From Eledone cirrhosa (taxonomy: Eukaryota), in assembly GCA_964016885.1 (NCBI GenBank), contig OZ024740.1, forward strand, positions 344,348,001-344,412,000: DNA of 64,000 nucleotides. Reading direction: 5' to 3'. Shown one piece after another: positions 4,845-64,000 of this stretch. Under the pieces are notes generated by a model. That model searched no databases. It was not told the origin of the DNA and was given only the letters and a program-made list of their open reading frames with translations. Both the position numbers and the translations under genes were made by a program. Positions within the stretch are counted from its first letter, which is position 1. Every line of letters starts with the position of its first letter.

Positions 4845-5050
4845 GAAATGGCGTGCTGCGTGGTTGCATATGGGTTACATATGAATAACATTAGTCCTTC
4901 ATCAGTGATCTTCCAGCCTTCATTGGTATTTCATCGCTTTAAAGATCATATACCTCTGGTTGTTGCGAGTAACGGCTAAAGAAAGTCGTTGGGACACGTA
5001 AATAGGGGGAACGAGCGAGACAGTAAACAAACAAAGATGGTAATGCAACG
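4845..5050 (-). repeat. Dispersed ~205-bp repeat (second copy ~27205-27410) containing a permuted HHR-like motif
   Basis: Near-identical to 27205-27410. Both copies abut (TA)n. Confidence 0.8.
4899..4954 (-). ncRNA. Candidate pseudoknotted/permuted hammerhead-like motif, copy A
   Basis: Minus strand reads GGUAU-A-UGAUCUU-uaaagcgau-GAAAUACC-12 nt-AAGAUCA-CUGAUGA. Stem III is 5 bp and stem I is 7 bp; no clear stem II. Confidence 0.5.
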
Positions 5051-11445: not shown

Positions 11446-11554
11446 TATACAGATGTATATATATATATGGAGAATAGGATTGGCTGTGGAGTTGTTAGTT
11501 AAGGTAGGCTTATAAATGGAATGAGAGGAAGAAGAAAGCAAGAAGGGGGGGTCC

Positions 11555-11610
11555 TCATCAGTTGTCTACTGTGGGTCTCGGATATTTCAACGCTTTAAAG
11601 ACAATATATC
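11555..11610 (-). ncRNA. Candidate pseudoknotted/permuted hammerhead-like motif, copy B
   Basis: Minus strand reads GAUAU-A-UUGUCU-uuaaagcguu-GAAAUAUC-13 nt-AGACAA-CUGAUGA. Both stems covary with copy A. Confidence 0.5.
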
Positions 11611-12756
11611 TACCACTAGAGCGTTAAATAACTGGGTAAGTTATTGGGAAAACGGAAGAGGCAGGGAAGAAAAATAGAAGGGAAAACGGAAAAAAGGAAG
11701 AAAAGAGAAAACAGCGAAAACAAAAATAAATCTAGGAATGTGCGAGCAACTTAAGGTAAGAAAATCCAAGACCACATCGGTAACTGAACTTAAGTTCGAG
11801 AGTGTGTGGGCGAATGAAAAGACACGACTGAACTCAGCGAGTGTAAGTGAGAAAAGGACTGCTCCGGGGTCAGGCGAGGGAATCAATGAGGTGGCTAGTA
11901 GAGAAAGGGTGAGTGTGTGTTTCTGTGTGTGTGTTTAGATATATGCACACATACACACACACATATACATACAGAAATTATTTGCATTTTTCGTATGTTA
12001 ATTTCGATATCCCGCATCTGACATTTTAATACATATATGAAATAACCTCATAACCTCATCGTCAACAACATCAACAACACCATTAACGGCAACAACAATT
12101 ATACAACTGCATCTTCGGGTGCAAACATATTTCAGATTTTATAAACACTTAGAAATCAAACTAAACATCAAACTAACTCATTGTCTATAATTCTTCATCC
12201 AATAAATTCAGAGGTTTTATAATAGTACTGTGCATCTGAACTTTTATTTAAAATCTTCCTACCTTCCTCGCTTGCTTGCTTTTGCTCGTTTTGCTCACTC
12301 ACAGCTGCTAACGTTTGAATGTGATCATTGTAAAGTCATTGAATAAACTATCACAACATTTCGGTACCAGCTAAATATGTATGTATTCTGCTCCCATACG
12401 CAGGATATACGTATACTACGCCGTATTTTGCATTAAAACTAAAAAAAGCAAGTAAAAAAAATAACAAACCTAGAAATAAATCAAAATATAACGCCAACAC
12501 AACCTCCAAATACGAAATACCATGGCATCCGCGTATACAAATGTGTATTTCGGCTTGCGTCTCTATGTATGTATATATGTATGTGTATGTTTGTGTGACT
12601 GTGTATGTTTGTGTACATGTGGGTGTGTACTTGTGTGTTTATATTTGTTTGTTTAGGAAGAAATTGATATGGAAAAAAGCATTTAGAATATTTCACATAT
12701 GTATGCATGTCTATCAACAAACATACACATACACATCTATGAGACACACACACACG

Positions 12757-24624: not shown

Positions 24625-25094
24625 TATTATTATTCTTTGGGAGGGTCAGGTTGCCAATAACAAACACACGCACCAATAGCTTTCACTCCAATTTATTATA
24701 AATTAAATTTATAAATTTAAGAATTTATAAATTTCCGGTTGGTTGGTTGGTTCCACAAATAAATAAACAAATATAAACACTCACAGACAATCGGATGTAA
24801 CACATGTGCAAACTAAGCACACAACACACACAAAAACAAGATGGCGTAGGACAGAACAAAGGAGAGGCACAAAAACAAAGAAAAGAAAAGAATCACCAGT
24901 CACTGAAGAGGTCACATAATGTGTGACGAAAGAACTTTGACAATATATAAACAATCATCTGGTTGTGGAACCAACCAACCAACCGGAAATTTATAAATTC
25001 CTAAATTTATAAATGTATTATAATAAATTGAAGTGAAAGCAATTGGTGTGTGTGTTTATTATTGGCAACATGACCCTCCCAAACTATAACAATA
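24625..25094 (+). mobile_element. Inverted-repeat element (~130-bp arms) with an HHR in the spacer
   Basis: 24625-24758 is the reverse complement of 24963-25094. Confidence 0.75.
24899..24941 (+). ncRNA. Minimal type I hammerhead ribozyme
   Basis: GUCA-CUGAAGA-G-GUCACA-uaaug-UGUGAC-GAAA-GAAC-UU-UGAC. Confidence 0.65.
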
Positions 25095-27204: not shown

Positions 27205-27257
27205 ATATGGCGTGCTGCGTGGTTGCAAATGGGTTACATATGAATAAATTTAGTCCA

Positions 27258-27313
27258 TCATCAGTGATCTTCCAACCTTCATTGATATTTCATCGCTTTA
27301 AAGACTATATACC
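27258..27313 (-). ncRNA. Candidate permuted hammerhead-like motif, copy C
   Basis: GGUAU-A-UAGUCUU-uaaagcgau-GAAAUAUC-12 nt-AAGAUCA-CUGAUGA. One mismatch in stem I. Confidence 0.4.
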
Positions 27314-27515
27314 TCTGGTTGGTACGAGCAGCGGCTAAAGAAAGTCGTTGGGACACGTAAATAGGGGGAACAAGTGAGACTGTAAACAATCAAAGATGGT
27401 AATGCAACGGTGTGTGTGTGTGTGTGTAAAAGGTAGACATAAATAACAAAACAATCGGTACAGTATATGGAAGGGATATATTAGGTTAACGCTTGATATA
27501 GCAGGAAGAGGGTCA

Positions 27516-27544
27516 TAACGTTTCGGACGCTAGTCTTTCATCAG
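27516..27544 (-). ncRNA. Hammerhead core, stem I not evident
   Basis: CUGAUGA-AA-GAC-uagc-GUC-C-GAAA-CG-UUA with palindromic AACGUU. Confidence 0.45.
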
Positions 27545-27641
27545 AAGAAAGAATGAGAAACAAGATAGATTGAGGGGACAGACGGGTTGGAATTGGAAAA
27601 AATGTCTTTAGATGAAAATAACAGGTCCAATATATATACAA

Positions 27642-40269: not shown

Positions 40270-43210
40270 GTATGTATGTTCTTCTGGTTTTATAAATTCA
40301 CAAAGTTTTACCAATAGAGAGAGAGTCGGTTTCTAACATAGACACAGTACTCTCTCATTGGAATTTACACAACATCAACTAGGTAGCTATGTATGTATGC
40401 ATGCATGTGTAGATATGGATGTTATTGTATGTGTGGATGTGTATGTTTTGAGTTGTATGTTTGCATGTGCATATGCTTTGCATCTGTATATGTGTATATG
40501 CAGTTATTAGATGCAACATTTTTGGAATGTTTTACATATTTTTACTGTTCCATTAATGAATTGTACTTGTAATTTCCTAACTAGTTGTGTTCTTTCTGTT
40601 CCTGTGAAGCCTAGCTTCTCAAGATTTGTATTGAGGCAGTTACTAACATATCCCAGTGCCCCAATAATCACAGGCATATATCTGAAGGTGTAATCAGGGT
40701 GGAGTATCTGCAGATTTCTCATCAGTTCTGCATAAATGTTCTCCTTTTCACTAATCTTTGATATTATATTGGCATCTGCTGGGCAGCTAATTTCCACTAC
40801 TGTGCATGCTTACTTCTCCCTGTCCCATATCATAATATCTGGTCTGTGATGCCTGCATTTTATCGGGGTTTTTACTGGAACATTCCTCCAGTACTCTTTC
40901 ATATTATGTACATGGATGTCTTCCACATTGCTGTAGCTTTTAATGTGTTTATTATCGGGGCTATCTTTTTTAAGAACTGCATTATACAGTGTTTTGGCCA
41001 CTATATCATGCCTCATAGGTAGATAGTACCGCGATGACATCTTTGAACAGCTGCTGATGACATGGGTGATATCCTCGATGTTAGTTCTGCAGAGTTTGCA
41101 CTTGTTATCACATGTAGGTGTTTTGTCTGCATCCATATCTCTTTTGTGAATCAGGTATTTCGTGATAATCTTCTGTTCCTTGATTACAAAAGCGTATCCT
41201 TGAAAGTGGGAGCCAATATAGCGGTTGTGGGTTCAAGATAGACTACTTTCCTTATCTCACTCTAGAGCTTCCTGGCAACATATCCAGGCATGATTTTTTA
41301 GCTGATAGGCATGCAGTTTTTCATCCATGGATTCACTGCGATACTGCTGAGCGACATCCCTGGGTGTGAGTTTTTGATTATCACACAGGGAATATCTCTC
41401 TAGGAGTTCCTTCCCAACTCTCATGATCTTATCTGTTTCATGCAGATAGACTTGCTCGAGAAACGGGCTCCTACGCTTTGAGGATCGTAGATGTTGTCGG
41501 AGAGATATGATGCTACATTCAAATGTTGTCTGGACTGATGTTAGGCCTCTGCCTCCCTGCTTACGTTTCAAGTAAAGGCGGTCTATGTCACTGTTGATGT
41601 GGAAGTTTCCGGTGTTGTTCAGTATTTTTCGAGTTCCAACATCACCTGCTCGGATTTCGTCTATCGTCCAATTGAGTATTCCAAACGTTGGTGTTAGGAC
41701 AGGCACAGCAAACACATTGTGAGCCACTGTTTTGTTTTACGCAGAGAGTTCCGATGACCAGATCTTTCTTAATCGGGTGTAGTATTCCCTGGTTACGCGT
41801 TCTTTATTACAGATACCATTATAGGATATGTTCTCATCTATCCCCAGGTATCTGTAGCAGTCCTCATCAGATATCGGTGAAACAGTTAGGCCATTGATGA
41901 CAATGTTGCTAGAGATGGGTTGTTGTTTTTCCTCGCTTTACAGTCATGTATGAGCATTTATCTTGGCCAAACTCCATTCCTATATCCTTTGAGAACGTTG
42001 TAACCAGGTCAAGATATTTCTTCATCCCATCCATGTTCTTGGCATAGAGTTTCAGATCGTCCACAAAGAAATTATGGGTTAGGTTCGTATTTCTGTCCTC
42101 CTGTTAGCCAATGATGTATCCCGCACATTTCTTGAACAGAAAGGACAAGGGGTTTAAATGACAAGATGAATAATATCACAGAGAGACTGTCCCCCTGAAA
42201 TATACCCCTGCAATATTTTATTTTATCAGTGAAAATAGAGTCCTCCCTCTCTGTCTTTAACCTTAGGATAGTAGCCCAAGAAGAAGACAGCCTCTCTATG
42301 GCTCTGACAATAATGTCTGGGACTTTAGCAAGTTGGAGGGCATCTATCATCCAACAGTGGAAAACAGAATCGAAAGCTTTCCTGTAGTCCAGCCAGACTG
42401 TAGTCATATTCCTCCTAAGTTGTCACACCTCTGACATCGCAGTTTTGTTGATTAGGAGTTGTTCAGCACATCCCCAAAACCCTTTCTTTCCAGCTGCTTG
42501 TTCACCTGTGATGATGTTATTATTTTCACAGTGATCTTGGAGGAATAAGTTCAGGCAGGCTGTATACATCTTATACATCAGGTTCTGGCATGCAATTGGT
42601 CGGTAGTTTTTTGCCAAGTGGGTGTCTTTGTTCTTGGGGACCAGCAACGTTTGAGCTAATGTCAACCATTCTGGTATAAGTGTATCTCCCTTAAGAACTT
42701 GTTGGTAGAGGTCAGTAAGATACCCCCGATAGAATATCAGCTTTTTGTACTAGTAGCCGACAATCATGTCTCTTCCTAGTGTTTTCTTATCTTGGAGTTT
42801 TCCTATCACAGTCTCAATGGTACCCTCACTTATTTAGTATGTTTTTGTTGTAGTGTAGGAGCAATAGTTATTTCGGATTTCTCTTAGCCACACTGCATCT
42901 TGGTTGAAATTCTTTTTTTCACGCCATATTTTGCTCCAAAAGGAATCTATGTCTTTCTGGGATGGGGTCTCAGTGACAGTTATTATTTTGCTCTTCATAT
43001 CTCTATAGACTGATGTTTGGTTTCGTCGGAATCTTTTATTACGCACTTTTCTCTCATTTACCTTCTTCAGGTATCGGCGTTTTTCGCTAACAGCTCTCAA
43101 TTCTTGTTTGAGGGTGATCAGCTTATATTGGAGAGTTCTGGTTCTACTGTTACCAAACATCGTCTCTATTTTAATGTTCACTCTTTGTTGGTGAGGAGTG
43201 AGGTTTTTTT
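40270..43210 (-). mobile_element. 5'-truncated, decayed R4/Dong-like non-LTR retrotransposon (RT, CCHC, RLE)
   Basis: NYRPIAC, WLDYRKAFDSV, GIFQGDSLS, FFVDDLKLYA, CKLC...HVISSC, RHD, RPD, EISCP. Multiple stops. (CATA)n at both ends. Confidence 0.92.
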
Positions 43211-44519
43211 GTGTATGTATGTATGTATGTATGTATGTATGTATGTATGTATGTATGTATGTATGTATGTATGTATGTATATATGTATGTATATATGCAC
43301 GAATGTATGTATGTACGCAATTATGTATGTATGTATGTATCTATCTATCTATCTACTATCTAACTATCTATCTACCTATCTATCTGTCTGTCTACCTTAC
43401 TAGTTTGCTAACTACATGTACCAATGCACACTTAACTGTATATGCATACATACTATTTACATCAAATGTACATCTATATGTCTTTTCGATTGTCTGAATC
43501 TCTCTGGCGTTCTTTCTTTATCTCTATCTATTTCTCTCTCTCTCTCTTTCTCCTTCTATGTCTTTTTTCTCTGCCTCTGTTTTTCTGTTTCATGACTACA
43601 AATACATGAATGGCGTTCGTTTTACATTTTAGACAATTCTCTGTACTTCGGTGGACTTCTGCATTGTACAATGCTTCATCATTGTCTCTATGGAAATGGC
43701 TTTTACTGAAAGTAGGTGGTCTAACCGCTTCAGGCAATCAAAGACAATGTATTTCAACTTAACATATGATCTTTCTTACAAGTACGAACCTGACTACATT
43801 CTTGCATTTCTTTGGTGTGATAGCATTTCTGGCGGCAGTTTAACATAGCATGTTGTTATGCTGTTTCTCTCACCTCCATGTCAATTGAGGTCATTCACAT
43901 ATGTTCTTCAGAGACTCGAAACAAGTGAATTCAATCTTTAGTCTTTTCAAATGTAGCCCAAAGTGTATATTGGAAGTTGAAGTGTTATTAGGGTTCATGA
44001 CATATCACACATAACCAACGAGTTATTCAACGAAAGTTTTCAGGGAATAAAATGATAATATTTGAGGTACTGCGTCGTGGCAGAATCATATTTTAATATT
44101 TGCCATTATCAAGACAATAGCCATTGTCTTAAACAGCACAACATTAACGCTGGGTAATTCATACTTAAATATATCTATTTGACCTTAACTTTACAATCAT
44201 TTATTTATTTCACTCATATTGCGTATTCATTTGTATTTTCTCTCATCAGCGAAAATTGAGGGAAATACATTCCTTCAATTGCTCTTTTACCATTATTAGA
44301 TAAAGTGCTCTGATACCATATTAGCAAATATCCAAAGATTTACTAATAAATAGATATGAACAAATTATCTTTAGTTCTTTGATGAACCAATTACGCATTT
44401 ATCCAGGGTAAATGACCATAGTTGTTCTTTTCTTTTTTAAAATTCACCAACGTACACACAAATAATTACACATAGATACACACACACAGACAAATATATG
44501 TATATATATATATATATAT

Positions 44520-45855
44520 GCAAATGGTGCTTCAGTAACATATATAACCTAAAAATGACTCAAGTGGAGCGCAGTACTTACCATCAACTGCTACATAATG
44601 CTGTAACTAAGGATTACCGTAAAACTAATCGGTGCGTCATTAATGAAATCAACGATGCTGGGTTTAAAATCACCTCTGATCTTAACATACTGGACCGGGC
44701 TGAACCTCTGGACCCTATTTCTCCCCACATTACCATGAAGGATCACCAATCCAATTTTCCGAACAACCCCTCTATTCGACTTATTAACCCTACGAAGGCC
44801 GATTTAGGTAGACTTAGTAAAAGAATTCTTGATAGAATTATACCTGAAATTAGAAGTTTGGCCCCTCTTGCACTGTGGAACAATTTTTTCGCGGTGATTG
44901 ATTGGTTCAACGGCATATGCAACAAGGAACATTGCCGTTTTATCCAATTCGACATCAATAATTACTACTCCTCCATCACTTTACCACTTCTATCAATTTC
45001 GCTGAAACACTCACAGTGGTTAAGGATTTCGAATTTGATGTCATCCTCAATGCCCGTAAGTCGGTGATTAATTTCGACGACTCTGTTTGGATTAAAAAAT
45101 CTAATAGTACCCTATTCGACGTGAGTATGGGCGCCAGCGATTCTGCGGAGGATACTGATCTTATCGGCCTTTTCCTTCTTTTCTCTATCAAGGAAGAATT
45201 CCCCAACGTGGGCGGTGGTTTGTACCGTGATGATGGTCTTCTGACCATGACTAAGTTCGGCCCACGCGCTTGCGACAGGTTCAGAAAAGAACTCACAGTC
45301 TTCTTTAAAGGCTTCAACCTCTCCATACAAGTGGAGGCCAACCTCTCAGTCGTTAATTACCTCGACGTTACCCTCAATTTATCGAATGGCTTGCATTAAC
45401 CGTATAGAAAGCCGAATGATACGCTTAATTACATACGTAAGCATTCCAACCATCCTGCCAGCATAACCAAGAACCTGGTAAGAAACGTTTCGTTGAGGCT
45501 TTCCCGTCTATCTACTAACGAGCATATTTTCACCGACCATTCCACATATTACAATGAAGCTCTTGCTCGGGGTGGATTTGTCGATAAGGTAGCATATACA
45601 GAGTACGAGAATAGACCTAGAAGAAATAGATCCCGACGCATTATATGGTATAACCGACCATATAGTATAGACGTGGCCACACCATTAGCTAAGATCTTTC
45701 ACTCCCTTTTTATGAAGCATTTTCCCCTACACATAAATATAGTAACATTTTAAATAGAAATACTATTAAAATTTCTTACTCTACGACTCCTAACCTTGCA
45801 CATAACATCACAGCTTCAAATTTAGCTAACCTACCTAGCCGTGGTCACAGTTAGC
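44520..45855 (+). pseudogene. Penelope-like element RT fragment
   Basis: ITMKDH...RLINPTKADLG, IQFDINNYY, FDVSMGASDSAE, GLYRDDGL, NYLDVTLNL, SNHP, IIWYN.PYS. Frameshifts present. Confidence 0.85.
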
Positions 45856-51445: not shown

Positions 51446-53557
51446 TGGATAACACAAGAAAGGGAGAAAGCGCTGTCAGACGACACAGAGAGAGGGAGAC
51501 TTTATCAGCATGTCAACAAGACAGCGTTCCAGCGTAGGTAAATATAAACGAAAATATTACAAAGGAAAAGATGATTGTTACAGATTTAAAATTAACAAAT
51601 ATTTCTAACACAAACACACCAACAATAACACCAACAACACCAACAATAACACCATAAATAACAACAGCAACAACAAACATAACAGCGGTAAAGTCGAGAT
51701 CGACAATAACAAAAATAACAGCGGTAAGGTCGAGAACAACAATAACAAAAATAACAGCGGTAAGGTCGAGAACGACAATAACAATGACAATAACAACATG
51801 CACAACAACAATAATAGTAGGAACAGTATCAACAAAAACAACAATAATAATAACAGCCACAATAACAGTAACAACAGCAACAGTATCAACGAAAACAACA
51901 ACAACAACAACAACAACAACTGTACCAACGAAAATAACAACAATGACACCGATACCTGTAATAGCGATCACAGCACCACCAGTAAGACCAGTAGCGGCAG
52001 CAATAGTGGTGCTGCTGAAAAAGGGACCACTTCTTTTGCAGGTGTCGCCCGAAATATCTAGACAGTGTTAGTCACAGAGGAGGAAATGGCAGTCGCCAGG
52101 GCCATGGTGACAAGAAGCGCAAATAGAGTTTCCCTGAAACCTCCACCCGATTTTTTCAAGGACCAGCAGCTACGGACGGTGACTTACCGCACCGCACCGT
52201 AAGCAAAATCTCACATCGAGTGGAGAGAGCCACGGTGGCTCAAATCCAAAAGGCTTTGGTGTTTGTCTGGGCACGCAAAACCCACATCACCCGAGGCAGA
52301 AAGTACGCCACAGTAGACGTACTTTTAGCCCCCCCCCCAGGAAGCAAAGTCTCACTCTTTGGAAACCCTAAAGAGTGCCCTCCTACTGCGGGCAGGAAAT
52401 TGTGAGGGTCAAAGTGACCCAGGTCCCACCCGACGTGCCCATACCTTGGCTGGCCGCGTCTGTCCTTGCTGGAATCGAGAACAGGACGACCATACTGAAA
52501 GTAGAAAAAATAGGGAGAGAGAACTGGTCAGGTATAGGCATGCAAATGCTTATACAAACTGACCAGGAATGTATCGACGCTATCCCCGATATCATAGACA
52601 TCGAGGAAGGACTCCAACTCCCTATAAGTGTAGAAGGAAGACGGCCAAAATGTTATCTCTGTGGGTCGAAGGGTCACCTCAGGGCCTTTTGCCCGCAGAA
52701 GACAGCGAAGAAGGCCCTTCTCCTTTCAATACCTGGTCCGCTGCTACCAAGAGCAGGGCAGGCAACAAACGAAGAAGCCCCTTCCACGGTGAGTAGGAGG
52801 GCAACGTCCGTAACACCCGTACCAAGGCCACGGACAATTAAAGCATCATCATCAGTGGCGGCAACACCAATAGCTACATTTGAAGTAGCTACAGCAGCAA
52901 CAAAATTGCCGAAGAGGGCGCTACTACCACCACCAACAGCCGTGGAGCACATACACCTCCTAGACGCCACAGAATCCGACATGGAGTTTGAGGCGGGAGT
53001 GAAGTGGCAAACGGTCTGCCACAAAAAAGAAAAAAAGAAAAAAACCCTTAGATTCACCCTCCAAAAGCGAAGGCATACAAAGAGGGGTAAAGGCAGCAAG
53101 GAAACTTGCAGCAACACCACCACCATCACCACCACAAGCACCACTGACAACAACAACCACACCATCACCAGCATCACCAAAAACACCAACAACGCAAACA
53201 CAACAAGACACACACACCAAACAGCAACAAGAAAAAAACAGCAACAAAATCACCCCTCCTCCAAAAATGTACACAGCCATAAATATGGCAAAAAAAGAAC
53301 TCATAAAATATATAAAGCAGCACACAGACATCACAGAAAAAAACTACTACACCCCACCAACACCAAGAACTCTCCCGACAAACATAAGCATCATCGAATC
53401 TCAGTACAAACCTTTAAAACAAAAATTCCCGAACCCAGTTGGAGACTTCAGAGGTTCGGTTACCAAGAGGATATACACTGTCATCCTCTTAGTAACACCC
53501 ATGACCAGCGAAAGGGACGGTTCTACTGTCCCTTCACCACACGAACAAGGAAAGTGA
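51446..53557 (+). pseudogene. Tx1-like ORF1 (gag-like, CCHC zinc knuckle), disrupted
   Basis: Asn-rich N-terminal repeats and CYLCGSKGHLRAFC. Stops and frameshifts present. Confidence 0.8.
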
Positions 53558-53589
53558 TCCTTTCTCACTTGCCCCGTTTCTCATCCAAC

Positions 53590-56500
53590 ATGGCCGTACT
53601 CAGAATAGGCAGTATAAATGCACGTGGCCTGGGGTCATCTTGGAAGCAGGGTCACCTGCTCAACAAACCTCAGGTCACTAAACATAGATGTGGTGGCTAT
53701 CAGTGAAATCAGAATCTCCGAAGCACAAGCCTTCGCACCGATCTCCGGCGGCTACGATGTATATGCATCTCCCAGCCGTCCATGATCGGGGGGAGGGTTC
53801 GCCGTCCTTTTTCGGAGAGGCTTGGATCTCGCGATACGGGCCATATTCCTAGACCCAGAAGGTAAGTCGGTGGTGCTGGACGTGACCGGCTGCGAAGGCA
53901 TTGCTTTCAGGCTAGTAGCCGTCTACGCCCCAACAGGGGCAGGACGGCCAGAATCTCTTTAGACTTAGATACCTTTCTTGGAACATGACGCTTTTTAGTG
54001 TTAGTGGGCGACTGGAACGGTATCTTGGATGCACGCTGGGATCGTGTGGGGCTAGTGGATAGGGGAGGAGGGTGCAAGAGCCTCACCAACATGCTCAGAC
54101 ATTTTGAATTGTCTGAGAGATATCGACTGGATCACCCGAATATGCCAATGTGGACATGGACAAACCGTCTCGGGTCATCCAGATCGTATCTCGATAGGGT
54201 ATTCTGCAGAGAACTAGATAAGGCTAATATAAGTTATCCACAATTTAAAATAGTCGACTACACAGACCACAAATTTGTGATCTGTGAGATCGACATAGAC
54301 AGACTTCATAGACAAGGGCCTGGTTACCGGAAGCTGAACGCGTCTTTCCCGGCGCGCAAAGCCTACAGAGACCGGATTAGCGTATTAGTTAAGCGGGCGT
54401 TGACGGCAGCGATCGTCAACAACAGGTGGTGGTTCGCTCTGAAAAGGGCAATTAAAGTAGAGTCGATTAGGTTTAGCAAAGGAGTAGTGATAGAGGAAAA
54501 TAGAGTAGAGGGAGAGCTAGTCAGAAAGCTAGAAGAGGCGTTTAGGACAGGCATCGCCACCGACGTGCTGGCGGCGAGATTGGCACTCGACCAATTCTCA
54601 CAACGCAAAACACGAAGGCTGAGTTGTCAGAGCTAGAGCGCGTGCTCTGAAATACGATGGGACAAAAGTCATCCAATGGGCCCGGGTGGCAGAGGCGCAA
54701 CGTGGCAACAGAGCCACAATTCGGTCTTTGTCTGACCAAAACAGGTGCGTGATACTCGAACACGAGCGGATGTGTGAAGCTTTTCAGCAGCACTTTGCTG
54801 AACGGTTCGGGAGCGGAGGCGGCCCGGATCGGGGCATGGACTTCAGTGCATACCTCGACGGACTGCCTCGGCTCTCGAGGACCGCAGCACAGTGTTCCGA
54901 AAAGCCAATAACAGCCGGTGAAATACGGGAAGCGATGGCTAACTGCACAAGGGGTAAATCGCCAGGTTTGGATGGCCTGCCCTACGAGCTTTATGCATTT
55001 ATGCCAGACTTGTTCGGTGACCTCTTGGCTGACGTCTACTGCAACTGGCAGAAGAACGGGAGCATTCCCAGTTTTGTGAGCCGGGGAGCAGTGGCGCTGC
55101 TGAGAAAAGACCCGAACAAGGGGGATGTTATCGGGGGTCTGGTGGGAGAGGCACAGACATGCGCCATTCCGGACAGATCCATACACGACAATCTCCACCT
55201 CATGCGATACATCATATAGAGGGTGGTTAAGCAACCTGGAAAGGGTGGGGCCCTGATCAACTTGGATCAATCCAAAGCATTCGATAAGGTCGACCATCGG
55301 TACCTGGTGGCTGTCCTCGAGTCAGCCGGTTTCGGGCCCGTTTTCAGGGGTTGGATCGCAGCAATGTACAGCGACATCTGCTCAGTTGTGAAGGGGAACG
55401 GTCACCTGTCGCAGCCGTTCAGCATCATGGGCTCAGTCCGCCAGATTGTCCGCTCTCGTCCCTCTTGTTCGTATTGGCTCTCGAGCCGTTACTACACAAA
55501 CTGGGGGCGATGAGGGGCGTCCTACGCGAACTAGGATGCGGGAAATCCGAGTCGGCTTACGCTGACGACGTCACCGTGGTGGTGTCGAGCACCAGACACG
55601 TCAGGATGCTCGGCACCGCTCTCAACGAATACTAAGCGGTGACAGGAGCAAAGATAATCCAGGAAAAGTCGGTGGGCTTGTAGCTTGGCACCTGGAGAAG
55701 GAAGTCCATGCCGTCCGACAGCGTCGTCGTGCGTTTGACGGACGGACCGGTTAAATTGCTCGGGGTCTGGTTCGGACCGGACCTCCAGAAGGAGAAAAAC
55801 TGGAACGAGGTGACGAGCAGGGTGGCCTCCCTCACCCAGAAATGGGCTGAGAGGAAGCTGTCCTTGAAAGGCCGGGCGGTTTGGCGAATGCGTATATCGC
55901 ATCCGTCATCTGCTACCGCCACACCGTCGTCCCTTGCTCCAGCCCAACTCTCACCAAAATGGAGCACCTCCTCTTTCCCTTTTTGTGGAAGGGACGCGCT
56001 CCCATGGTCAGACAATCCATCTGCTGTCAACATCCGTTGCGTGGAGGACTGGGCATGCCATGGCTGATGATGCGCAAACATGCGCTGAGGCTGCGACATC
56101 TCTGGTGCTTCCTTGATTGTGAACAGGTGTCGTCGCCGTCCCTCAGGCCCGTTTTACCACAGCTCGTCTCCTTGTCGGAGCTGCAGTCCTGGGTCAGAAA
56201 CAGACCGAGGGATAGCGCTTGGAAACTGGAATGTATTCAGGCGCTCACTGCCCTCTGCCAGCTGGGCACCAGTATCGCTGGAACATCCACCTCGGCGTTC
56301 TATAGAGGACCAGTGGAGGGGAAGAGCGACGACATTCTCGGAAAGATCCTGGGCGTCGAAGAAGATCAGCTGTTTGCTCTCTTCAGGAGAACTTTCAGCC
56401 CGGGGCCTATGGATAACTTCCAACAATCCCTGGCCTGGCAGTGCTACCGGGGAGCGCTGCCAGTTCGAGATAAGCTCTACAGGCACGGAAGTGCCGTCAG

Positions 56501-56922
56501 CCGAGCCTGTCCGAGATGCGCGCAGAGCGACGAAACCGTCGTGCACGCACTTGTTCAGTGCCCGAGCATTGCTCATTTGTGGAGCTATATCGAACAGTTG
56601 CTGTCGCGTGTAGGACTGATCCGGTTGTCTACTGAGTCTATTGTGCAGATGGTCTCGCCGTCTTCCTTAGAGGAGGAAGGGCAGGCGATTTTCATCTGCC
56701 TGGTGGCCATGGCGAAAGAGATTGTGTGGTGGACAAGGTTAACTGGGTTAAAGACAGACACTTTTCTCTTCGGCGAATCCCTAATTAACTTTTTGAAGTT
56801 TCACTTGAAGAGGAAAATCAGGGTGGAGAGGCAAGTGCTGCTTTCTAGCAAGTTTGTTGAATTTGGGTGAATGTAGCGAGAATGGTCCGAGTGAACGGGA
56901 CCTATCTGAATATACGCCTGTA
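53590..56922 (+). pseudogene. Tx1-like ORF2 (APE endonuclease, RT, zf-RVT), disrupted
   Basis: MAVLRIGSINARGL, VYAP, GDWN, YLDR, TDH; KSPGLDGLP, LDQSKAFDKV, AYADD; CPRC...H....C. Confidence 0.92.
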
Positions 56923-57299: not shown

Positions 57300-60200
57300 G
57301 TTTTATTTATTAACCACAAGGGTTTACATAAAGTAGACATTAAGGACAGTACAGGACAATACAGGACGGTACATATGGGCATTTCTGAGTGTAAAAAAAC
57401 AGAGGATGTATTAACAAATAACAATGAAAAATTCCACAATAGGTGGGAGACTTCCGAGGGACATTTGCGGAGAAAGCCCATTAAAAGGCCACAGTGACCC
57501 TGACCACCAGGGTAAGTGCCCTCTCCCAGTTTTCCACCTTTAATTTACTGACACATACTCAGAGTAGGCCCATTCACTCGGGCCATACTTGCTTCTCTCA
57601 CCCATCTTTCAACAAAATGCTCGGAAGAGAGCACTTCCCTCTCTACCCTGATTTTCCTTTTCAAATTTTCAATTTGAAAAAGTTAATCAGGGCATCACTG
57701 AAGAGGTAAGTGCTCGTCTTCGCCCTTTCAAACGTATCCACCATACTATCTCTTTCGCCATAGCCACCAGACAGATAAAAACTGCCTGCCCTTCCCGGCT
57801 AAAGGAAGAGGGCGGGGCAATCCTCACGATGTACTCAGCTGATAGCTGGATCCGTCCTGCCCGTGACAGCAGGTGTTCGACATAATCCCACAAGTCAGCA
57901 ATGCTCGGACACTGGACGAGTGCGTGCAGGACGGTTTCGTCGCCCTGCGCGCATCTCGGCCTTCCCGGCTTAAGGCACCTCCATGCCTGTAGAGTTTATC
58001 CCGAACTGGCAAAGCTCCTCGGTAGCAGTGCCAGGCCAGGGATTTCTGGAAGTTGTCCATAGGCCCCGGCCCGAAAGTCCTTCCGAAGAGATTGGCTAGT
58101 TGATTTTCGTCGACATCTAGAGTTTCTCCAAGTACGTCGTCGCTCTTCCCCTCCACTAATCCCCTATAGAACGCCAAGGTGGAGTTTCCTCCGATCACAT
58201 TGTCCGATTGGTGGAGGGCTGTGAGCGCCTGAAGACATTCCAGTCTCCAAGCGCTCCCTCTCGGTCTTTGCTTGACCTAGGACTGCAGCTCCGTCAAGGA
58301 GACAAGCTGGGGAAAGACGTGTCTAGCAAACGGCGACCACACCTGATCACCGTCGAGGAAGAGATGGAGATGTAGTAGCCTGAGCGCGTGTCTGCGCATC
58401 ATCAGCCACGGCATGCCCAGCCCGCCACGTAGCGGGTGTTGACAGCAGATAGACCGCCTGACCATCGGAGCGCGTCCCTTCCACAAAAAGCGAAAGAGCA
58501 AACGCTCCAGCCCAGTCAGGCGGGACTTAGGACAAGGTACGGCGGTCAGGCGGTAGTATATGACGGATGCGATGTACGCGTTAGCCACCTCCGCTCGACC
58601 TTTCAGGGATAGCTTCCTCTCCGCCCATTTTTGGGTGAAAGAAGCCAGCCTGCTCGTCACCTCATCCCAGTTGTTGTCCGTCTGGAGGTCCGGACCGAAC
58701 CAGACTCCTAGCAATTTAACCAGTCCGTCCGTCTAGCGCCCGACGACGCTGTTGGACGGCATGGACCTGCCTCTCCAGGTGCCGAGCTGCAGGCCCACTG
58801 ACTTTTCCTGGCTGATCATTGCTCCTGTCACCGCTTCGTATTCTCTTAGTGTAGTGCCGATCGCCTCGATGTGTTTGGCGTTCAACACCACTACGGTGAC
58901 ATCGTCCGCATATGCTGACACAGATCCCCCGCATCCTAGTTCGCGCGGGACCCCCTCAACGTCTCCAGTTTGTGCAGTAATGGCTCGAGAATCAATACGT
59001 ACAAGAGGGACAAGAGGGGACATCCTTGGCGGACCGAGCGCATAATGTTGAACGGTTCCGAAAGGTGACCGTTCACTCTCACCACAGAGCAGATGTCGCT
59101 GTGCATGGCAGCTCTCTAGCCTCTGAAGACGGGCCCAAAGCCAGCCGCCCTCAAGACTGCCGCTAGGTAACGATGGTCGACCCTATCGAAAGCTTTCGAC
59201 TGATCTGAATTAATCAAAGACCCACCCGTGCCACGTTCGCTAGCTACCCTCTCCACGATGTATCGCATGAGGTGAGGTTGCCGTGGATGGATCTGTCGGG
59301 AATGGCGCATGTCTGCGCCTCTTCCACCAGACCACCAACGAGAAGCGCCAACCTCTTTGCTAGCACCTTGGCCAAAATCTTGAACTCTGTGTTTAGCAGA
59401 ATTATGGGCCTGAAATTATCTATGTTATCCCCCTTGTTCGGATCGTATCTGAGTAGCGGCAGCGCTCCTCGGCTCACAGAGCTGGGAATTCTCCCGTTCT
59501 GTTGCCAGTTGCAGTAGATGTCAGCCAAGAGGCCTCCGAGCAAGTCTGGCATATGTATGTAAAGTTCATAGGGCAGACTATCCAAACCAGGCGATTTACC
59601 TCTTGTGCAGCCAGTCATTGCCTCCCGTACTTCAGCGGCTGTTATCGGCTTTTCGCAACACTCCGCCTCAGTGGCCGAGAGCCGCGGCAGTCCGTCGAGG
59701 TAGACACTAAAGTCCATCTCTCGATCCGGCCCGCCGCTGCCTCCGAACAGCTGAGCGAAGTGTCGCTGAGAAGCTTCACACATTTTCCCGGAATCGAGTA
59801 GCATGCGCCCGTCGTGGTCCACCAAATACCGGATCGTGGCTTTTTTGCCACGACGCGCCTCCGCCACTCGGGCCCATTGAACGGCTTTCGTCCCCTCGTG
59901 TCTGAGAGCACGCACCCTAGCTCTGACAACGCAGCCTTCGTGCTTTGAATTGAAGAATTGTTCAAGGGCCAATTTCGCCGCAATACGTAGTCTTCTCATT
60001 GCAGAAGGCCCTGAGGTGTGTCTTCGACACACAGCGAAAGCATTTCGGGCGTTTGCTCTCAACACTTATGGGAAGTTGAGTGCCGTTATCAAAGTCTATC
60101 ACATCCGGATAGCTTCGATGCACTCCTGGTTGGTTTGAATTAACATCTCAATGGAGGCGCCGACCCAATCTTCTCGTACTTTTTTCTGTACTTGCAGTAC

Positions 60201-62716: not shown

Positions 62717-64000
62717 TTAAACCAGCCATTTCATTTCGCTTCTCTCTAATTGGTTGTTTATTTGCGGTTGCAGGCGTTTGATAAAAAGTGCTTCCTTGAT
62801 ACGTAACGTGCCGACGTTTCTTTCAGTCGCTAGAATTGTGACAATGGGCCTTCCGTCTTTGTTTCCGTATTTGTCTATGTGTTTCCGGAAAGACGAGGCC
62901 CTGGTTTTAGTGTGTTCCTTGATCCGGATGTGTAAAGGTTGAATTGTGCTACCTATGTAGTATTGGTTGCACCTGTCACATTCTATTTTATACACGACGT
63001 ATGTGCGTAGGCAACAGTTAGCATGGCGTATCGGGCAGTCTCTGAGGGAGCATGCGTCAATAGATTTTTCGGGTTTCCTGGAGAGGCATCTTCGCAGGGA
63101 GGGGCCCGAGTGGGCCAGGTGGATGTCGAGGCCCTCTCTCCGAATAGCCTAGCGGTTAGCGTTGGTGGTTTTCTCGCCCAGGTGTGGCATTTTAAGGAAG
63201 CACTTGCCTTGGGTGTTTCTCTGTCTCTTGCGTCTGGTGTCTCCTATTCTGTCTGTGATCGAGGTAGGGTACCCCTTCGTCTCCAGCACCTCGAGGAATC
63301 GCTTGGTATGAGTGACACCACTCGCGGGATCGCTGCATCTGTTTTTGATTTGCGCGATCTCGTTCGTGATGTATCCTCTTTTGGCACTGTTAGGGAGGGC
63401 GGACTTGTAGTGAACGAATAGGTCCCTGCAGGCTGCCTTTCTGTAGAAGTTGCAGTGGATCCCTCCTTGTTCCGTGATGTTGATTCGGAAGTCGAGGAGG
63501 GCAAGTGACCCGTCTTCGTTGGGGTGTTCAACACTGAAGTCAATGTTATCGTCCGTGTTGTTGAACGTCTCATAGATTCTGTTCGCCGTGTCTTGGGAAG
63601 ATGTGAGGATGAGGATATCGTCCACGTACCTTGAGAAAAAGGCTACGGCGTTGGGGTGGCAGGCGTTGAGTGCCTTGCGTTCGAGCTTGTCCATGTAGGA
63701 GATCGCTAGCACACCTGATAGACTTGATCCCATGGGCAATCCCGAGGTTTGTTGGTATATTTGGTCAAGGAATCCGAAGTAGGTGTTGTCAACGACGATG
63801 GATAGGAGTTGGTGGATGTCAGTGGTGGTGAGCCCGAAGCAGTGTAGGTCGGTGGATTGGACGCGTTCCATTAGTATATTGACGGCCGGGAGTGCCGGGA
63901 CCGAGGTGTAGAGAGCGACTACATGAAGGCTGAAGGCATATCTTTTATTCCTTCTGGTGGCGGGATCCATTTGATGCAGGCGCTTCAACACCTCGGAGCT
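62717..64000 (-). pseudogene. Penelope-like element ORF (RT plus C-terminal GIY-YIG endonuclease), runs off the window end
   Basis: QTSGLPMGSSLS, RYVDDI, LLDF, Cys-rich linker (CSLRDCPIRHANCC), VVYKIECDRCNQYYIGST...RIKEH...KEALFI. One TAG at ~63149. Confidence 0.92.

Follow-up and report, generated by a model that had tools for sequence, protein, structure and literature searches.

The feature that includes positions 11555–11610 of the window (the whole 64-kb stretch of DNA that was analysed) is real and selected, and on sequence evidence we consider it likely to be a hammerhead ribozyme that cleaves itself, non-circularly permuted and with its stem II split, present once per unit in a non-coding Penelope-like repeat. 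The conserved letters are hammerhead-like and the pairs covary, so the motif likely cuts the repeat's own RNA. It is probably used by a large class of Penelope-like (PLE) non-autonomous repeats and native to Naiad elements.

Layout and covariation of the six-helix motif

On re-reading, the minus-strand letters quoted for 11555–11610 in an earlier note on this DNA were exact. That note had described 56 nt with two helices; the actual motif is approximately 105 nt with six helices, four of which, reaching 45 nt upstream, had been overlooked. From 5′ to 3′ the order is P6a, P7 hairpin, P5a, P4a, stem III strand, N17, stem I strand, a short linker, P5b, GAAA, stem III strand, P4b, stem I strand, CUGANGA and P6b (Table 1; residues are numbered by the established hammerhead convention). 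P5 is formed by the strand before GAAA and an upstream strand, P4 by the variable linker and the strand following P5a, and P6 by the strand after CUGAUGA and the strand directly 5′ of P7, which is itself a hairpin directly 5′ of P5a, between the upstream strands of P6 and P5. Each corner of the proposed four-way junction of core, P6, P7 and P5 has 0–1 unpaired bases, and in family B a 1×4 loop connects P4 to stem III. The family-B insertion that holds the 11555 copy comprises ~450 bp out of a ~560–580 bp unit, and runs into a (TA)n tract at its 3′ end and adjoins a (TG)n tract at its 5′ end. This copy is a decayed insertion with weakened P4, P6 and P7 and may itself be poorly active; its single-sequence minimum-energy fold was a different, non-significant structure (z −1.3).

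Table 1. Coordinates of the motif, its host insertion and the related copies in the window
Feature	Position	Strand	Basis or remark
Host insertion	11463–11915	−	5′-truncated family-B copy; blastn to family-B loci, unit spacing in loci L095–L097
P6 5′ strand GUUUUCC	11647–11653	−	Partner is the strand after CUGAUGA
P7 hairpin, CAAUAACU / AGUUAUUU	11626–11646	−	Covariation; closing pair mutated in the 11555 copy
P5 5′ strand AACGCU	11620–11625	−	Displaced 10.x-equivalent strand of stem II
P4 5′ strand	11613–11619	−	Covariation, RNAalifold; degenerate in the 11555 copy
Stem III 5′ strand GAUAU	11610–11606	−	Ends in U16.1; paired with AUAUC 11585–11581
N17 = A	11605	−	Predicted scissile bond 11605/11604
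Stem I 1.x strand UUGUCU	11604–11599	−	Paired with AGACAA 11567–11562
UUAA linker and P5 3′ strand AGCGUU	11589–11598	−	11.x strand of stem II
G12-A13-A14 (GAA)	11588–11586	−	
Stem III 3′ strand AUAUC	11585–11581	−	Starts at A15.1
13-nt linker	11580–11568	−	Contains P4 3′ strand
Stem I 2.x strand AGACAA	11567–11562	−	
CUGAUGA core	11561–11555	−	
P6 3′ strand GGA	11552–11554	−	Shortened in the 11555 copy
Family-A copy, six-helix motif	4889–5000	−	N17 at 4949
Family-A copy, six-helix motif	27248–27359	−	N17 at 27308; one stem I mismatch

Covariation was scored over 28 pairs of P7, P5, P4, III and I in 30 hand-picked copies, namely 27 of the 137 complete copies (nine subfamilies) and the three window copies. 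The results showed that 94.7% of 835 pair cells were paired, compared with 28–49% in a control in which the partners were slid by 1–3 columns, and that 16 of the 28 pairs changed on both sides. Both-side changes were found at 3/7 pairs of P7, 5/6 of P4, 5/6 of stem I and 2/5 of stem III, the last two bearing out the compensatory pairing that the earlier note had claimed for both stems. One-side changes were of the G–U type, consistent with the minus strand. The covarying copies are related (approximately nine subfamilies) and the structure was read from the same sequences, so the covariation represents a limited number of independent events. P6 was scored on its own, as an extra A may follow A9, and it forms 3 bp or more in 127 of the 137 complete copies. 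Its sequence is GUUUUCC, forming 7 bp with GGAAAAC, in intact family-B copies, GUCC/GGAC in families A, C, D and F, and CCA/UGG or CCU/AGG in H/K, where the P6 pair beside A9 alternates between U–A and A–U (n=30). Across the copies, all six helices covary.

RNAalifold by itself recovered P4 and stem III only, and single-sequence folds recovered P6, P7, P4 and III in three of five sense-strand copies. The upstream helices outscored shuffled flanks for 12 of the 16 representatives, with no more than 1 shuffle in 60 equal to them; the other four, from D (32/60), I (7/60), J (6/60) and K (3/60), were not clearly above the shuffles, and for C2 and D the scoring script settled on a different register.

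The pairings are kept across subfamilies, which supports the earlier proposal of selection on a permuted hammerhead-like RNA structure; their loss from the family consensus was one of two outcomes named in advance as fatal to that proposal. Other parts of it needed correction. The two repeats had been called unrelated, and their distal flanks indeed lack a meaningful blastn match, but in the 45 nt upstream, 20 of 45 aligned letters and four helices are common to the 11555 repeat and the 4845/27205 repeat, so that the two are not wholly unrelated. In architecture, the families are distant homologues. The linker does differ between the repeats, as stated, because it is one strand of helix P4. 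The downstream GGAC, taken as conserved, is in the 11555 copy a shortened form of the GGAAAAC that many family-B copies carry. The suggested role of UAAAGCG, as a substitute for stem II or in a tertiary contact, was only half right, in that GCG(U/A) is the 3′ strand of stem II, and pairs with the upstream strand (UCGC/GCGA, ACGC/GCGU, UUGCA/UGCAA, GGCGC/GCGCC).

We then have the copy number. A first tight pattern (TTAAAGCG-NN-GAAA-gap-CTGATGA) matched at three places in the window and at none in 100 shuffles; in the microsatellite-rich host genome (3.0 Gb) it gave 9,068 exact matches (4,548+4,520), and the reversed-pattern control gave 0. A looser pattern gave 10,428 matches in the host genome compared with 55 in the control. 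Family B, to which the 11555 copy belongs, accounted for 506 exact matches and the divergent H/K group added 822, with 0 in either control. A stem-only descriptor (core plus stems I and III), run on 2.46 Mb of copy-flanking sequence, yielded 18 further matches and four in reversed controls. Four of the 18 are likely chance, six are mutated or mis-registered copies of known families, and the remaining eight led to five more divergent families, G–K. An Rfam scan of the window gave nothing at the gathering score, and around the motif at E values up to 10 it gave microsatellite-driven miRNA-type matches only and no ribozyme family. Pattern matches in metagenome (nine loci) and viral (one locus) sequences lacked the stems and were rejected as chance. 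At 41928–41942 (−) the window has a one-mismatch match to TTTAAAGCG-NN-GAAA with no downstream core, which is probably chance.

Hammerhead core, possible cleavage footprints and alternative explanations

The core C3-U4-G5-A6-N7-G8-A9 adjoins stem I. In the 30 H/K copies, for which the pattern left both letters free, G8-A9 was invariant (30/30), and the free N7 was C in 23 and U in seven. G12-A13-A14 is present, the A15.1–U16.1 pair opening stem III is kept in 29 of 30 aligned copies, and U16.1, a letter outside the search patterns, is kept in 133 of 137 complete copies. N17 is A in 102, C in 34, U in one and G in none of these 137 copies, and C in 13, U in six and A in two of the 21 parsed among the 30 H/K copies. 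P4 joins the distal end of stem I to that of stem II (P5) and covaries, and by analogy it presumably serves as the stem I–II tertiary helix. A stem II made from the strands directly after A9 and before G12 is absent, as these strands pair with the P6 and P5 partners. In H/K, P5 ends in a G–C pair directly beside G12; in families A–G, including the 11555 copy, A–U or an unpaired base stands in place of G10.1–C11.1, and this may reduce activity.

Eckert et al. (2023; PMC10085705) defined the blocks S, G and C and validated types SGC and CSG in vitro. The order of the present motif is S-G-C, and it does not fit types I, II and III, which are circular permutations of C-G-S without core pseudoknots. 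It shares with SGC/CSG a non-circular cyclic order with crossing stems and an I helix. An uninterrupted block C (at most 1–2 nt from CUGAnGA to stem II) was not found, as P6 and P7 intervene, and for this reason we file the motif as a presumably undescribed permutation and not as type SGC.

In the arrangement that we favour, P5 would stack on the core as stem II, and the SGC/CSG pseudoknot topology would be opened between A9 and 10.1 and resealed there by P6 and P7 as a four-way junction. The motif would cut multimeric repeat RNA after N17 into unit-length pieces, and these unit RNAs, linear or circularised, would be reverse-transcribed in trans into (TA)n by a PLE reverse transcriptase, at present maybe that of a young Neptune-like family. 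Against this arrangement count a stem II that is not contiguous with A9, a contiguity that Eckert et al. assumed to be necessary, and the missing G10.1–C11.1 pair of families A–G; in a monomer, moreover, the chain has to turn tightly from stem III into P4.

We looked at the ends of insertions for possible footprints of cleavage. Head-to-head junctions gave 24 matches (control 9; three unrelated by eye), and in 9 of 21 junctions an arm ends at the predicted site or one base before it (rough expectation 19%). In family A, homology ends within −4..0 of the predicted site in 117 copies (23 of 30 checked were true 5′ ends) and within −9..−6 in 21 (16 of 21 true), and in the wider family set it ends within +3..+6 in 199 (13 of 20 true). 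This corresponds to ~18 5′ ends per base at the site, ~4 upstream and ~32 downstream; the predicted site shows no sharp peak, the downstream control window being as dense, and the profile is instead a step with its drop on the upstream side. Such a step is suggestive of linear templates starting at the predicted site, and TA-rich microhomology could produce an equal pattern.

The tight turn bears on an alternative in which the ribozyme works only as a domain-swapped dimer. Each core would then consist of blocks S and G of one unit and the CUGANGA, P5a, P6 and P7 of the next, and the stem III–P4 arms would bridge the two cores. The 1×4 loop of family B is tight for a monomer, tandem arrays are common (nine units in locus L089), dimeric action has been proposed for minimal PLE hammerheads (PMC4209133), and covariation is blind to pairing in cis or in trans. 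However, all six helices are able to form within ~105 nt, there is no palindromic stem III such as dimeric minimal hammerheads have, and SGC/CSG ribozymes of equal I-helix connectivity cleave as single short transcripts (PMC10085705). We regard an obligate dimer as unlikely.

A hammerhead-derived RNA that no longer cuts, and that serves the PLE reverse transcriptase/endonuclease near priming sites as an element for binding or protection, would account for the position of the motif 20–80 nt from the preferred 3′ ends and for the loss of G10.1–C11.1 in the most abundant families; moreover, one PLE transposed in vitro without needing hammerhead cleavage (PMC11167929). Against it, the catalytic letters and the exclusion of G at N17 are kept across otherwise differing families, and the density of 5′ ends at the predicted site and beyond it downstream is ~4 times that immediately upstream, which makes a purely structural role quite improbable. 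That the motif arose from repeat sequence by chance or ascertainment, or is a transposon coding region, we consider hardly credible. The first search patterns did include the core letters, and the reversed control of the stem-only descriptor did give its four matches, but the reversed-pattern controls gave none and the four helices outside the patterns covary. As for coding, the other outcome that the earlier note had named as fatal, no stop-free frame of 100 codons overlaps the motif, the longest being 97 codons of low complexity, and locus L089 holds no complex ORF of 150 amino acids.

Host repeats, possible mobilisers and Naiad elements

The repeat units are 470–810 bp long, pyrimidine-rich on the motif strand and without ORFs. 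They are dispersed or occur in tandem arrays of up to nine units with one motif per unit, as in L089, where the units are spaced 720–810 bp apart, and inverted head-to-head pairs are common. The insertion features are PLE-like, with 5′ truncation, inverted copies, an optional 3′ tail and microsatellite flanks; 64 of 175 3′ ends run straight into TA repeats. Among 92 copies of families A, C, D and F, the 3′ ends form two clusters ~50 nt apart (26 and 21 copies in 10-nt bins). These two preferred ends resemble the PLE tail, which is tied to two reverse-transcription starts (PMC11167929).

No canonical hammerhead was found in the tandem units. Pairing between the motif and a minimal hammerhead nearby was considered and rejected, because the units lack a canonical one and the minimal motifs belong to separate elements. 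One of these, at 27512–27549 (−), is a canonical minimal type I hammerhead with one stem II mismatch; the separate non-autonomous element that bears it adjoins a family-A copy across a CA tract and has intact versions in L090 and L091. A canonical type I hammerhead-like motif at 24903 (+) belongs to another repeat family, seen also in L038, L091 and L113.

The earlier note had proposed a search for autonomous elements carrying the motif; none was found in the flanks examined of 32 loci with Naiad remnants or among 245 motif loci. In two of these 245 loci (L015 and L016) the motif repeat is fused directly to inverted pieces of a single young Neptune-like PLE family; a chimera of the two is present in L090/L091. 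This family bears its own minimal type I hammerhead and is therefore a candidate trans-mobiliser and not the source of the motif; a reading of the motif as the pLTR of this family was rejected on the same ground. Pfam searches of the PLE fragments gave no reverse transcriptase family, and GIY-YIG only, in one of 10, so the label 'Neptune-like' is drawn from linker features and from comparison with PMC8557442, and not from a tree.

Other mobile elements were noted in passing. The window contains broken Penelope-type reverse transcriptase and GIY-YIG (Pfam) fragments at 44441–45399 (+) and 62717–63642 (−), unlinked to the motif, and two decayed, inverted LINE-like elements at 52372–56870 (+) and 57824–60065 (−), ~80% alike (endonuclease/reverse transcriptase by eye). 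A second, AT-rich PLE family with a C-terminal GIY-YIG is present at L100:4400–6100 (−), L162, L176 and L276, with no hammerhead motif at its 3′ end in L100.

According to Craig et al. (2021; PMC8557442), canonical hammerheads are absent from Naiads, eight of which are marked as half-core. We compared the last ~330–370 letters of 53 of the 54 published Naiad consensi, judging pairings by eye. Within these 3′ ends, the split-stem-II architecture was recognized in seven of 53 and type CSG in six. The split form occurs in the coral Naiads Naiad_Amil, Aacu and Anas, the octopus Naiads Obim and Ovul, the squid Naiad Esco, and, with a stem I of only 2 bp, the ctenophore Naiad Bfor. In the 3′ end of Naiad_Amil it has 8 bp in P6, 6 in P7, 6 in P5, 10 in P4, 12 in III and 6 in I, with no unpaired base at the junction, and the G–C pair of P5 beside G12 is also seen in Naiad_Amil, Obim and Bfor. 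The nematode Naiads Nbra 1–3, Hcon, Hpol and Asuum end in a clean type CSG with an I helix in the letters compared. Four of the eight half-core Naiads, namely Nbra-3, Hpol, Ovul and Esco, were thus resolved as split or CSG forms. The remaining 40 ends have no such motif in the stretch examined, and several may have it farther upstream. Judged by its resemblance to these Naiad ends alone, the host would probably be a cephalopod.

Some of the Naiad 3′ ends hold other structures in the stretch compared. In spider Naiad_Ptep the order is S-G-C and a hairpin separates the stem I strand from GAAA, and in ostracod Naiad-4_Dst G then C blocks occur with a contiguous stem II; both may be further permutation variants. 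The bivalve and hemichordate Naiads CGi, Sglo, Olur, Tgra, Pmar, Skow and Pfla have a different conserved structured 3′ motif directly after the ORF, which may be an HDV-like ribozyme.

In the host genome, a pattern from the octopus Naiad motif gave 0 matches, and decayed Naiad-like reverse transcriptase remnants gave 102 matches; the remnants in the 32 loci mentioned above are heavily decayed. Like Naiads (PMC8557442), the motif repeats are found in (TA)n targets as tandem and inverted 5′-truncated copies with an optional tail; unlike Naiads, they encode no protein. We infer that this ribozyme type comes from Naiad-clade elements, and it may be the ribozyme thought to be missing from them. 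We lean, with some reserve, towards a broader reading in which non-circular hammerheads are native to Naiads across phyla and the split form is an active seventh permutation that drives a large and so far undescribed class of retrozyme-like repeats here. CSG would then be the form of nematodes and the split four-way-junction form that of ctenophores, corals and cephalopods, and the seventh permutation would lie outside the six-block scheme, with its break between A9 and 10.1.

If this holds, non-circular permutations, so far a matter of a few hundred environmental RNAs, would become a feature of animal genomes, in an element of high copy number. The assumption of an uninterruptible CUGAnGA block would be broken, since the core would tolerate a four-way junction at the base of stem II, and such a core would be a new scaffold for structure work and ribozyme engineering. 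From the report of Naiads without hammerheads, the ribozyme was taken as dispensable in PLE biology; Naiad hammerheads were perhaps missed because descriptors assume the canonical order. Likewise, Rfam and descriptor scans miss the motif, and censuses of invertebrate ribozymes and retrozymes are therefore probably undercounts.

Comparison with known hammerhead systems

Our search of the open-access full-text literature turned up neither a retrotransposon nor an animal genome with a hammerhead described as non-circularly permuted, nor a four-way junction at hammerhead stem II; variants of the hammerhead that have additional helices are noted in PMC13725137, which cites a 2015 paper for them. 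Eckert et al. found non-circular permutations almost exclusively in metatranscriptomes, with a single bacterial GCS candidate among the genomes of known organisms, and assumed that block C tolerates no interruption; engineered and natural SGC and CSG forms cleave in vitro as single short transcripts (PMC10085705).

The minimal hammerheads of PLE pLTRs and animal non-LTR retrozymes (PMC4209133; bioRxiv 10.64898/2026.07.22.740005) are like the present motif in occurring once per non-coding tandem unit, near the 3′ end, in an optional nucleotide after A9 and in PLE-type insertion features. They are of type I (C-G-S), their stem II being a hairpin and their palindromic stem III dependent on dimers, whereas the motif is non-circularly permuted and has a full 5-bp stem III, and is not type I.

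Type CSG, previously represented by two metagenome sequences (PMC10085705), has an equal cyclic strand order, and the motif in a tandem array or a circle is the CSG form; it differs from type CSG in two extra helices between A9 and 10.1 and in a linear opening that falls within block C. With type SGC (HRIMA-1 and its variants) the motif shares the S, G, C order and the mutually pseudoknotted stems I, II and III. Both also have the short stem I–stem II linker and the 'I' helix connecting these two stems that mark SGC forms (PMC10085705), P4 being the counterpart of the latter. However, the 10.x strand that directly follows CUGAnGA in type SGC is moved upstream of block S in the Eledone motif, where A9 is rejoined to it through P6 and P7. 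In contrast with the metatranscriptomic SGC sequences, the motif is present in more than 10,000 DNA copies in one animal genome.
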